From Eledone cirrhosa (taxonomy: Eukaryota), in the NCBI GenBank assembly GCA_964016885.1, contig OZ024746.1:5456001-5520000 (forward strand): a stretch of DNA of 64,000 nt, written 5' to 3'. Made by a program: the position numbers and the translations under genes. The notes under the pieces were generated by a model. It made no database searches. It worked only from the letters and a program-made list of their open reading frames with translations, and was not told where the DNA came from. Of the stretch, positions 625 to 63,721 are shown piece after piece. Numbering within the stretch: position 1 is the stretch's first letter; the number at the start of each line of letters is the position of its first letter.

Positions 625-985
625 CAGATGTTATATTTAATTTAAAAATTAAAAAAATGTTTACAACTGATATAAAGCACTCAACAGTTTAGTGGAGTAA
701 ATATACAATATATTAATAAATGGAAACTATATTTATAAAACCATATTTGTTTTATTACCAAGGCAAATTATGGTGCGCTTTCATCAGATAAAATACAGAT
801 TTGTTTTATATCCAGGAAGCTCCAACCGTTAAGGTTGTCTTTTTTTTCCGGGGTACGTCAATATTTATTTATAAAACAAATCTGTATTTTATCTGATGAA
901 AGCGCACCATAATTTGCCTTGGTTGCCCTTGAAATATTTATAATAAAATAAATATGGTTTTATAAATATAATTTCCATTTATTAA
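625..985. mobile_element. Fold-back PLE terminal-repeat (pLTR) remnant, family Y
   Basis: About 712-810 is the reverse complement of about 868-985 with a deletion; homologous to 39639-39890 and 54040-54162; abuts (TA)n. Confidence 0.75.
885..950 (+). ncRNA. Minimal type-I hammerhead ribozyme (family Y)
   Basis: TATTTTAT-CTGATGA-aagcgcacc..ggttgccctt-GAAA-TATTTA-TA^ATAAAATA: 8-bp stem I, intact core, 1-bp stem III with a near-palindromic loop. Confidence 0.8.
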
Positions 986-1589
986 TATATATATATATAT
1001 ATATGTATATATATATATATATATATATATATATATATATATATATATATATACATACATATATATATATATATATATATATATATATATGTATATATAT
1101 ATGTATATATACATACATATATATGTATATATATATATATATATATATATATATATATATATATACATACATATATATATATATATATATATATATATAT
1201 ATATATATATATATATATATATATATATATATATATATATATATATATATATATATACATATATATATACATATATATATATATATATATATATATATAT
1301 ATATATATATATGTATATATATATATATATATACATACATATATATATATATATATATATATATATATATATATATATATATATATATATACATATATAT
1401 ATACATATATATATATATATACATATATATATATATATATATATATATATATATATATATATATATATACATATATATATACATATATATATATATATAC
1501 ATATATATATATATATATATATATATATATATATACATACATATATATATATATATATATATATATATATATATATATATATATATATA
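984..1589. repeat. Long (TA)n microsatellite
   Basis: About 600 bp of TA with CA/TG interruptions. Confidence 0.95.
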
Positions 1590-1713
1590 GTGAAACTAAT
1601 ATTAACATTTTGTACTGCCTCTTCGCTGAAAAGTGAAAAACAAAAACAATAACAAGGAGTGCAGTTACGAACTGTGTTGGTATTAGGTTCACGCTTGGGA
1701 GGTGTGTGGAGGT

Positions 1714-1823
1714 ATGCGCGTGTGTGTGCGTGTGTGTATGTGTGTGTGTGTGTGTGTGTGTGTGTGTGTGTGTGTGTGTGTGTGTGTGTGTGTGTGTGTG
1801 TGTGTGTTGCGTGTGTGTGTGTA
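1714..1823. repeat. (TG)n microsatellite
   Basis: Directly visible. Confidence 0.95.
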
Positions 1824-1844
1824 TGTACTTCCGTATATGGTTGA

Positions 1845-1945
1845 AGGCAGCTAGAAAAGAGTACTCAATACCGAATACCCTTTGATAAACAGACGAAACT
1901 CCAGAGTAACAGGACTCACTATTTAGCGTTAATAAAATGAATATA
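1845..1945. mobile_element. PLE pLTR remnant, family V (rearranged)
   Basis: aaagagtactcaataccgaa and gaaactccagagtaacaggactcactattt match 46804-46890 in opposite orientations; contains a hammerhead 3' half (GAAA-CTCCAGAG-TA). Confidence 0.6.
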
Positions 1946-60378: not shown

Positions 60379-61587
60379 AATATTTTGCAATAGATAGGAA
60401 ATGAAAACTGAATTTGTATCATTGAGGCAATATCCAACGTTATTAGTGATATAGGTGAAGGAACAGAAATAATGATGTTATTAATAATAATCTTTGATGC
60501 CCTGTATTTTCTGGCGTGGATAAACTTGGTATTGTGATATTTATGAGTGTCTGAAGTATGTCAGTTCCACAAATGACATTAAATGAATTTAATTTCAGAT
60601 GAAAACAAATCCCAGTTTTTTTTTCTGGCCAGGAACTGTTACATTTACTATCAGCGCGTCTCCCTTGCCGTCCTCCAGGGAAATGCCTTCTCCATTCTGT
60701 CGCTGGGGCTGTGGGGAGGCCACCAATATGATTGACTGACTTGTCATTTTATCAGTCAGATGTTATAATGACTCTCTCTCTCTCTATATATATATATGTT
60801 CTTTTACTATCATATGTAAATATTTTGTTAACATAGTTTGATAATGTTGTTTGTTTCCAGTATATCCCTAAGTTGCTAGGTTGAAATTAGTACACGTATA
60901 TCATTTGCGAACATTTTACTCCCTATTAGGAGGCAATTGGTATATTTCCACCATGTGAGATATCACATGGTTAAAGAGAGGAATAGTGGATACTTGCATA
61001 AAGCTCAATAATCTACATATCTATTTTTATTCGGAATTGTTGACTTTCATTTAAAATCGATACAACCTTGTCGTCAACGTTTCTAAACTTTAAAAGTATA
61101 TTTTTTGTTTCATTTAATGATCCATCATGTAATATTATGACGATTGGTTGTGCATACAAAATTGGAAATAATCAATGTTTTAGAATATTCCAGAATCATG
61201 TAATATAATATTCACCAGGTTCATTCGTTTTCCGTTCACGCATTACGACATTTTGAGGATACTTTTTTCTCGGCTGTTACAAGTTCATATCATTGCATAA
61301 AAAAGTTATGATGGAATTTTTAATATATAGATTTCTGCATTGTTTGTTAACATTTTTAGATTTCTTTCTGAAATTAACTACAAATCGGAATTCTTCGGAG
61401 CAGAATGTTGTATCTGCTGCCAAATCCTATCTCAGAAGTTGAATATATTCTTTTATATGACTTAGTTTTCCAATCATTTTCTTATACCGTATTTCTTTCA
61501 ATATAATGGGTAATGTAGCGATAACTCTGAACAAGGAATGTATCCCCTTGAGTTATAAGTCGCTGATGTAATTTCGATCCTATTTGT

Positions 61588-61880
61588 GGAGGCGCATATC
61601 CTAATGGTTAGGGTGTTTGACTTACGATCAAAATGTTGTGGGTTCGATTCCTGGACCTGGTTGTGTGTTGTATTCTTGAGCAAAAAACACTTCATTTCAT
61701 GTTGGTCCAGTATACTCAGCTGAAAATGAGTACCAGCAATAGCTGGGGGTTTAACCCTGCAATGGACTGGTGTCCTGTCCAATGGAAAGTCTTGTACTCT
61801 CAGTTGCTTCACGCCACGAAAGCGGGATAAGCATTAGCCCCATGAACCACCTGGCCTGTGACAGACTTTAGACTTTAGAT
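61588..61880 (+). mobile_element. SINE family A variant
   Basis: ggaggcgca..taatggttagggtg..gggttcgattcc; cttgagcaa; (actttag) tail. Confidence 0.8.
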
Positions 61881-63174
61881 TTGAAGACGATTCATTCAGT
61901 TAATTAATTTTATGTATAAAAGTCGGAATGTCACAACACAAGGTATTCTATTCTTTATAATGTAGCGAATATTACAATAGTTGTCTAAATAGGAAGGATG
62001 AGCTATTATTACCACAATTATCATAGTTTGGATGCTGAAATTAAAGGTTTCCATTTTGAATCCTGCCTGATACTATACGTATCATACATAGGAAATTAAT
62101 AAAAATACAATATAATATAATGTTTTATCTTCATCCCTATATATATAATACTCTCGATATATAATACTCTAATACTGGGAATAACCAGAAAACCTAACCA
62201 GGAATCGAATTCGTGTTAGTAAATGAGCTTCCCAGTAACTATTTATCACTCTATTTCGTGGTATTTGTGTATTCTCTTCGAAAATATATCTCACATTCAA
62301 CTTTATTGCCATGTCATAATAGGTGCTTAAAACCCAAAACACTTTTTAATTGAAAACTTTAAATAGTTTGTAATGTATAAATAGGTTTGATGAGAGGATT
62401 TAGAAACTAGATTTTACTATTCGCTGTAAAATATGCTTCATCCTACAGTCCTAATTATATGTTTCTAATTACACGTCCTTAATTATAACAGTAATTACAT
62501 TCCATAGCATACAACCAAATCCGAATGAACTTGCCATGACATGAACTTCTTCATTATTTCATTTCAATTGTTTTGTAGCGTTGGTAATGAATGTGGTAGA
62601 CGAGGAACTGATGTGCGCACTGTGTAGATAATTCAGTATTAATATAGAATCATGAATGCATTCCATATATGGAGAATCATTTTATAATATCAAATATATA
62701 GCAACATATATTGATGTGCTGATTTAGATGTAAGACAAAGGACAAATGACTAAAATTTAAGAAGTTAACTTTTAGAAAATATATTTTAAAATCGCATTTA
62801 ATATTTTTAATGTTATATATGACCCACCAATGACATCAACAACAACAATTGTCGGCGCAATAATTGGCCATAATAAACAGAATCGAATATTGAGGTTGAA
62901 AAACTGAAAGAAAATGCCTAAGTCTACAACCAATCAAAATATCATGATTTTGACCTTGTTTGCACTCATTATTCAATATAGCGAATATATCCAATAATCA
63001 CATTTTTCTCTCTCTCATTTGTTCTGACTGTGTATATATATATACATATATATATATATATATATATATATATATATATATATATATATATATATATATA
63101 CTCATTAAAAACAACAGAAGGTTGAACTGGAAACCTTCTTCATTAGTAAACAGCATAACATAAATTATAGGGGG

Positions 63175-63430
63175 AAAAGTGACTTCAGTTGTGGTTGATG
63201 TTCTTTAATAATTCAAATCCTTACAATACATCGATATTAGTTCTGGTAAGTCCTTGTTAACTTCTGTGGAGAACACAAAGTCCTTGTTAACTATCTAGGG
63301 AAATTTCTCGCATTCGGTTCGATTTTCAAACTGGTCGGATGTGTTGTGTTGAAGATGTTTATATACGAATTATTGAACATATTTGAATTATTAAAGAACG
63401 ACGTCAACCACCAGTGAAATCATTCTTTCC
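63175..63430. repeat. Diverged inverted repeat in a TA-flanked insert
   Basis: gtggttgatgttctttaataattcaaat versus atttgaattattaaagaacgacgtcaaccac. Confidence 0.65.
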
Positions 63431-63502
63431 CAGTTTTTCCAATTTACCTTACTGTACCAAGGAATTTCCTTCCTTTTCTACTATATATATATATATATAT
63501 AT

Positions 63503-63721
63503 AACAAAGGAATTGTGGTAAGGAACCAGATGGACCATAACGCACCAGAGTACTCAATACTTAGGGAAGTAGAGTGGGAAATAAGAAAAAGTATGACCCC
63601 GACGGCAGAGCTCAAGCCGTTTCGATGGCTATTCTGGACGGCTATTTCTGGACGACTATATGTGTCCAGAAATAGCCGTCGAAACGGCTTGAGCTCTGCC
63701 GTCGGGGTCATAGTTTTTCTT
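63503..63721. mobile_element. Fold-back PLE-derived element, family X
   Basis: Palindrome about 63580-63722; homologous to 20637-20820; (TA)n flanks. Confidence 0.85.

Follow-up and report, generated by a model that had tools for sequence, protein, structure and literature searches.

A predicted bulged RNA hairpin next to the insertion ends of Hydra-clade Penelope-like elements in Eledone cirrhosa

Introduction

A 64,000-nucleotide stretch of the Eledone cirrhosa genome (assembly GCA_964016885.1, contig OZ024746.1, positions 5,456,001 to 5,520,000 of the forward strand), referred to here as the window, comes from a 3.0-Gb AT-rich animal genome and is rich in short fold-back repeats within (TA)n, bearing type I hammerhead ribozymes. 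A sequence-only reading of the window reported a near-palindromic motif, GAGTRCTY, downstream of the hammerhead in several repeat families, and suggested that it is a cis element of the termini of Penelope-like elements (PLEs). The locus thus raises the question of what this motif belongs to and what it might do. We report that the cited motif represents no more than one side, the 3′ arm, of a bulged RNA hairpin predicted in Hydra-clade PLEs.

Results

Structure and recurrence of the hairpin

The predicted hairpin opens with RCTC, followed by an inner stem that covaries and by the loop; on the 3′ side come a bulge of 2 nt, GAGY and then RCT. The bulge, directly 5′ of GAGY, is TT, TC or TA (1 nt in family W). 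Outer-stem variants are ACTC/GAGT, GTTC/GAGC, GTTC/GAAC and GCTC/GGGC, other families carry TCGT, CAAA, ACCT or TACC after the 3′ arm, and the spacer between the arms ranges from 5 to >60 nt, with covarying pairs. In most complete 5′ untranslated regions (5′UTRs) or tails the hairpin occurs twice (H1 and H2), between the hammerhead and the ATG.

Metagenome contigs were scanned with a Hydra-type protein alignment, and the best 80 of 316 gave 79 loci, which formed 64 clusters at 80% identity, 41 of them informative. The full hairpin was present in 23 of these 41 (shuffle mean 0.8, maximum 3; 1 in a control window within the open reading frame, ORF). The motif, which the sequence-only reading had proposed to look for in PLEs of other taxa, was found in 25 (shuffle means near 0.8, maxima 3–4 over both searches). 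On the antisense strand the motif occurred in 19 clusters and the full hairpin in 5. With anchors set by the 3′ letters alone, RCTC was found upstream at 27 of 29 H1 and 26 of 27 H2 anchors, compared with a background of 15%; this set includes one anchor that is an indexing artefact (L225) and one locus counted as both H1 and H2 (L268).

Covariation was assessed in an alignment (A4) of 27 non-octopus H1 sequences, with the anchor of L258 corrected by hand. GAGC is present in 26 of the 27 rows, nearly always followed by AC. Paired cells amount to 96%, with 39 two-sided changes, a result reached by none of 500 shuffles, while slid controls were 20–57% paired; these and the other permutation nulls ignore relatedness. 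RNAalifold returned the same fold unprompted. In the H1 set anchored on the 3′ letters, 83 of 90 inner-stem cells are paired, with 10 G-U and no A-C pairs, which favours the sense-strand RNA as the folded molecule.

The motif and hairpin in the window

All 11 of the cited 8-mers were found at the coordinates given for them. GAGTRCTY gave 25 strand-matches in the window compared with 4.74 expected (maximum 11 across 100 shuffles), a count inflated by palindromes scored twice and by multiple family copies. Two cited sites, at 35535 (GAGCCCTC) and 55786 (GAGCACTC), do not carry GAGTRCTY on the sense strand, both having the GCTC/GAGC form. The match at 4138/4145 has no partner arm and is probably due to chance.

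For a de-duplicated test, hammerhead-like repeats were clustered from the window and 1.56 Mb of the same genome (156 sampled 10-kb stretches). The clustering gave 22 families with a long enough copy, and 4 further families without one; it pooled Y and Z in one family, recovered little of X, and may include some false folds. At 20–150 nt past the cleavage site, GAGTRCTY was present in 5 of the 22 families (shuffle mean 0.11, maximum 2) and GAGYRCTY in 6 (0.17, maximum 3), and the hairpin descriptor fitted 8 (0.24, maximum 3). Under a stricter descriptor, 2 of 9 families carried the motif. The enrichment thus survives de-duplication, but the motif is not general among hammerhead-bearing families. 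The distance to the cleavage site, given as about 40–120 nt in the sequence-only reading, proved loose (about 45 to 300 nt), the distance to the element end being the tight one.

The flanks had been described as otherwise unalignable. We found instead an RCTC-like upstream partner at 11 of 11 cited sites, with 1–5 inner pairs, although the arm picked by the script at 1866, 46814 and 35535 differs from the arm read as homologous. Of the 11 cited sites, a covariance model built from A4, and so from non-octopus sequences only, recovered 6 with E<=0.11 and 2 weakly and missed 3; it also found additional copies. The hairpins and associated parts in the window are as follows.

577..612, plus strand: family X H1, not cited; model match and partner arm
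673..704, minus strand: family Y H1; model match and partner arm
1857..1880, minus strand: 3′ arm of family V; its homologous 5′ partner seems to have been removed at the inversion junction, as read from the sequence
14095..14152, plus strand: family U H1, not cited; model match and partner arm
15295..15330, minus strand: covariance-model match inside an X fold-back, not cited
20680..20715, minus strand: family X H1; 5′ arm at 20709, cited motif 20689-20682 being the 3′ arm plus flank; model 28 bits
30086..30120, plus strand: family W H1, 1-nt bulge variant; partner arm, model negative
35487..35544, plus strand: H1 of family '35415' (U), GCTC/GAGC form with long loop; model match
36207..36238, minus strand: H1 of a further family, not cited; GAGT-ACC flank, model match
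39731-39687, minus strand: family Y short-arm hammerhead of the same fold-back as the next entry
39815..39850, plus strand: family Y H1 in the fold-back long arm; partner arm, model negative at E<=10
39966..40007, minus strand: family Z H1; weak model match (E 3.4) and partner arm
40063..40113, minus strand: family Z type I hammerhead
42084..42478, minus strand: broken Hydra-type GIY-YIG endonuclease end of a Z element (tblastn)
46108..46184, minus strand: family '46234' H1, 42-nt loop; partner arm, model negative
46805..46836, minus strand: family V H1; model match
49129..49164, plus strand: decayed family X H1, not cited; model match
55608..55726, no strand assigned: family T hammerheads as a head-to-head pair; the minus arm stops before H1, the tail is on the plus arm
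55763..55795, plus strand: H1 of family '55578' (T), GCTC/GAGC form; best model match, 30.9 bits
56474..56509, minus strand: family X H1, not cited; model match and partner arm
57342..57377, minus strand: family X H1, not cited; model match
63546..63581, minus strand: family X H1; model 28.2 bits and partner arm

Z is contiguous with its endonuclease end in the window, and at least 9 further copies in the genome show this end joined to the Z hammerhead. The W hammerhead core lies at 30021, upstream of the W H1. For X and V, which had been reported as hammerhead families, only the 3′ half of the ribozyme is visible in the window. The V hammerhead, known from this half, is putative; full X units elsewhere do contain a core, of the U3-A8 type, with a long stem III and a palindromic loop (window 20757 and 63624, minus strand; L337:690-770). 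A 59-bp tandem duplication at 46698-46818 repeats the 3′ arm and the end of the family V tail.

The Rfam 15 covariance models gave 2 chance matches elsewhere in 6 hairpin-bearing loci and none on the hairpin. No match at the motifs was found among the 150 window matches listed (of 244); the window Rfam scan and the repeat search were dominated by microsatellite matches.

Insertion ends

(TA)n-bounded ends were clustered without use of the motif, giving 83 rows. Of these, 28 were retained by hand with the sequences in view, hence not blind; satellites, reverse-strand ends, ends within hammerheads and duplicates were dropped. The hairpin descriptor fitted 16 of the 28 at a score >=6. In 12 of the 16 the 5′ arm begins 2–5 nt past the short end (8, 9, 9 and 14 nt in the others), and their tails are 73–166 nt long. 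The descriptor scan of the retained rows did not find the hairpin in families with 34–43-nt tails, and was negative in other short-tail families, including one group that we presume to be Neptune-like.

A GTTT/AAAC look-alike in the L024/L031 family was dropped. It fails the descriptor, has no second copy past the long end, and its tails have no model match. This family is of another PLE clade, presumably Nematis-like. In L031 (minus strand) and L024:3294-4488, the same five letters directly follow both the short and the long ends, with different hairpins, perhaps as an analogous signal.

When insertion ends were mapped on full units of families X, Y, U and A, 168 of 183 coincided with H1 or H2 or preceded one of them by no more than about 7 nt (X 68/72, Y 35/38, U 29/37, A 36/36); alignments can run up to about 4 nt too far, and A includes 30 protein-selected loci. 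Short arms stop before H1 and long arms before H2. Exactly one arm had the H2 end in 33 of 34 inverted insertions (P=4e-9 against 50:50), in agreement with the one-sided tail typical of PLEs. The gap from the longest TA match to GCTC is 3 nt at H2 of X, Y, Z and U, and 5 nt at both hairpins of A, and the start sites share AT-rich microhomology, often just TA, with the (TA)n target. About a dozen ends mapped by alignment in the metagenome loci lie 0–5 nt before a hairpin, and a few depart from this pattern.

Two hairpins per element, and the clade

The full element has the order hammerhead, short-end site, H1, long-end site, H2, ATG, ORF, 3′UTR and hammerhead. In 26 non-octopus loci H1 and H2 are spaced by 58–82 nt, and in 25 of them an in-frame ATG follows 21–51 nt past H2. 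Since the motif sits upstream of the ATG, coding constraint on it was ruled out. H2 retains the arms, the bulge and the first inner pair, with little stem beyond. Searches for RCTC just past the long end gave 421 matches for X, 157 for Y (some overlapping) and 20 for Z, with 0 in each control, and a looser pattern gave 90 for the '46234' family (control 0); the long-end patterns themselves select for RCTC. Among fetched loci, a complete H2 followed, and then a Hydra-type ORF, in 6 of 6 for Y, 3 of 3 for Z and 3 of 6 for X, the other X loci being truncated. The H2 and Hydra-type ORF of family U, to which 35535 belongs, were reached by protein search, independently of the motif. For the '46234' family H2 is present, and the ORF search past it was negative in 5 of 5 loci.

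The protein motifs, (TA)n target and hammerhead of these elements match the Hydra clade of C-terminal endonuclease-bearing (EN+) PLEs as set out in the available text of Craig et al. 2021 (PMC8557442). At the N-terminal RWK position, X, Y and U have RWR and family A has RWK; at the DKG to DKT change, X, Y and U have DKT and no DKG. The CxCX5C linker occurs in X, A, Y and U. A C-terminal GIY-YIG domain without CCHH and with CxxC and CxH was read over the whole C-terminus in X and A, and by tblastn only in Z. Insertion into (TA)n and a hammerhead near the 3′ end are also found, the X core being the U3-A8 variant. The tandem periods of 3,531 (X) and 3,715 (Y) are longer than the "generally <3 kb" of the clade (PMC8557442), which the source gives as a tendency rather than a strict rule. 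We place X, Y, U and A as Hydra-clade PLEs by their protein motifs, including those of the reverse transcriptase (RT), and Z by tblastn; the restriction to this clade covers the ORF-linked families, and T, W, V and '46234' stand outside that link. A Pfam search gave no family for the Hydra-type pieces.

Among the published Hydra consensuses (File S7 of PMC8557442), as far as that file was covered, the hairpin was judged by eye to be clear in 3 of 6 (Hydra-2_Amil, Hydra-2_Ajap and Hydra-1_Ajap, the last with two copies at its 5′ end; coral and sea cucumber are among the sources), a variant in 1 (Hydra-1_Crog) and unclear in 2. The words hairpin, stem-loop, bulge and palindrom have no matches in the main text of that paper. 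No description of the hairpin was found in the PLE literature as far as accessible, including PMC11167929, PMC8557442, PMC4209133, bioRxiv 2026.07.22.740005, PMC3846280 and PMC13282606; subscription papers and bioRxiv supplements may bear on its novelty.

Several tandem arrays were seen. Full X units of about 3.53 kb, whose ORF is uninterrupted, are arranged head to tail, as are Y units of 3.7 kb (L337, L338; G000:C1:91476611-91487262). At L032:485-3660 (G000:C3, 55 Mb) a 615-bp non-coding unit that carries both hairpins is repeated in tandem, and the array stops 3 nt before H2; this unit is possibly a non-autonomous partner of Hydra elements. At L032:4200-9100 and in L195, a 310-bp tandem array has a canonical hammerhead per unit, resembling non-LTR retrozymes, with a 34-nt tail and no hairpin.

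Other features of the window

Minisatellites are present at 49469-50008 (30 bp, 18 copies) and 16472-16979 (56 bp, 9 copies). A tRNA-like Rfam match (35.5 bits) at 61590-61659 on the plus strand is possibly the head of a short interspersed element (SINE). An endonuclease-like fragment at 23116-23580 on the minus strand had no Pfam match; we take it to resemble the terminal part of an R2/R4-type element, where the restriction-like endonuclease lies.

Discussion

Insertions end a few nucleotides before either hairpin, and the hairpins therefore likely position the start of reverse transcription. We consider it probable that each hairpin binds the RT-endonuclease protein of the element and sets one internal start, so that the tail corresponds to the hairpin spacing. 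Given a tandem transcript, the protein, as a dimer, would engage both H1 and H2 of the downstream element unit. Each nicked strand of the target would anneal to UA-rich bases 3–5 nt 5′ of one hairpin and prime cDNA leftwards, and the hairpin directly 3′ of the start would stay uncopied. One start per hairpin would thus give a one-sided tail equal to the H1–H2 spacing, and a hairpin left uncopied 3′ of its start would explain why the long arm alone contains H1, and why H2 is confined to copies that are tandem or full-length. We give about even weight to a more specific proposal, in which the uncopied hairpins serve as a ruler: a dimeric, telomerase-like RT would hold one hairpin per subunit and, with the (TA)n target nicked on both strands, each subunit would prime on one of them a few bases 5′ of its hairpin.

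Structured RNA elements that act in cis are known in other systems. The 3′ stem-loops of stringent long interspersed elements (LINEs) and SINEs, and the R2 3′UTR, are recognised by the RT of the element and set the start of target priming. The LINE/SINE stem-loops are situated 5′ of the start, and every insertion receives a copy of them, whereas the hairpin described here lies 3′ of the start, is uncopied for that end and is duplicated, the short arms stopping before H1 and the long arms before H2. Hepadnavirus epsilon and the boundary elements of telomerase RNA are bulged stem-loops, bound by the RT, that fix the template register, and PLE RTs are sister to telomerase. The likeness to epsilon, which templates from its bulge with protein priming, is by description only; telomerase boundary elements stop synthesis, in contrast to the start proposed at the hairpin.

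The nearest biochemical system is the Poseidon element PAc. According to the parts of Frangieh et al. 2024 (PMC11167929) consulted, its RT starts at two internal sites bounding the tail, both target strands are extended, the protein is a predicted dimer, and the start-site signal needs 3′ sequence (the first 172 nt of the ORF, with starts at 111-118). PAc resembles the hairpin elements in the two internal starts bounding the tail, the AT-rich target and the inferred protein-binding signal near the starts. It differs in its clade, in having an AC-rich stem loop at the start and no conserved motif defined in that text, and in its tail of 30–40 bp inside the ORF (PMC11167929), compared with about 60–180 nt in the 5′UTR here. 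The genomic ends mapped here are consistent with PAc-type initiation at two internal template sites.

Several observations weigh against internal starts set by the hairpins. The biochemical precedent, PAc, comes from another clade. The full descriptor is lacking in 18 of the 41 informative metagenome clusters, and dedicated searches for an H2 continuation in T and W gave nothing usable (V was not among the families searched). The four outer pairs are invariant in A4 and hence uninformative on covariation, and covariation in H2 stops at the first inner pair (24/26 paired, nearly all C-G; the second 12/26). Single-copy folds are weak (-3 to -13 kcal/mol), the opposite strand is no less stable, and at 3 of 10 window sites the minimum-energy fold lacks the outer stem; such weak folding fits a protein-stabilised element, which by itself lends no support. 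For U, 8 of 37 ends lie within the loop of H1, which is TA-rich. By eye, about 9 of 24 U copies (L287-L310) lose similarity on the 5′ side at or just inside H2, which may reflect either a transcription start or the meeting point of two RTs; copies beginning near H2 could be explained by a promoter.

The motif might alternatively act as DNA, the GIY-YIG endonuclease recognising it in element DNA or in a cDNA hairpin and cutting a few bases 5′, in trimming or resolving an intermediate. The ends do lie at a fixed, cut-like distance, and the opposite-strand folds of single copies are equally stable. The Drosophila virilis Penelope endonuclease required the tail for recognition (as reported in PMC11167929), and Craig et al. 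attribute the tail to endonuclease-mediated resolution (PMC8557442). A spacer of 5 to >60 nt with covarying pairs is however unlike a duplex DNA site, the 10 G-U and 0 A-C pairs point to the RNA-sense strand, and ordinary long arms without H2 would need a longer precursor to be acted on. We regard recognition as DNA as unlikely.

It is likewise improbable that the hairpins mark RNA ends, through transcription start or stop or upstream cleavage, with the resulting RNA 3′ ends then used in ordinary target priming. The U loci that lose similarity at H2 (about 9 of the 24 ORF starts) would fit this, as would the promoter in Penelope pseudo-long terminal repeats (PMC8557442). PAc, however, initiates internally regardless of the template 3′ end (PMC11167929), one short and one long end per insertion (33/34) demands coordination within a single event, and a DNA promoter gives no expectation of stem covariation. 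The covarying stems and the loops of 3 to >50 nt make a promoter element, suggested in the sequence-only reading, less likely.

A kissing or dimerisation site joining two element RNAs, also suggested there, is very improbable. X and V carry GAGTACTC, a perfect palindrome, and GAGCGCTT in the H2 of Y and Z is able to self-pair, but GAGY is predicted to be already paired with the upstream RCTC, the form commonest outside this genome, GAGC-ACT (26 of 27 H1 rows have GAGC, nearly all then AC), has a centre that cannot self-pair, and other families have the flanks TCGT, CAAA, ACCT and TACC. Shared ancestry or chance without current function is hardly credible: every linked family is from one clade, and permutation nulls ignore relatedness, but arms, bulge and pairing persist while loops and flanks are unalignable, across elements <80% identical and across phyla, and the covariation and end mapping contradict it.

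The suggestion of a cis element of PLE termini thus stands in altered form, as a duplicated hairpin rather than a lone palindrome, and among ORF-linked families for the Hydra clade only. How PLEs complete their transposition cycle, and how their one-sided tail arises, are open questions, and the single in vitro study did not define the signal at the start sites. The matter can be tested directly with a hairpin that is conserved, covarying and duplicated and whose position predicts both ends to a few bases; this hairpin also provides an annotation marker for Hydra-clade PLEs and their non-coding partner families. If hairpins do set internal starts, target priming in these elements would be twin and programmed internally, which would explain the tail as well as the head-to-head insertions, and such a hairpin could be transferred to any RNA to set an RT start. 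It would also bear on how telomerase-related RTs set their template register.

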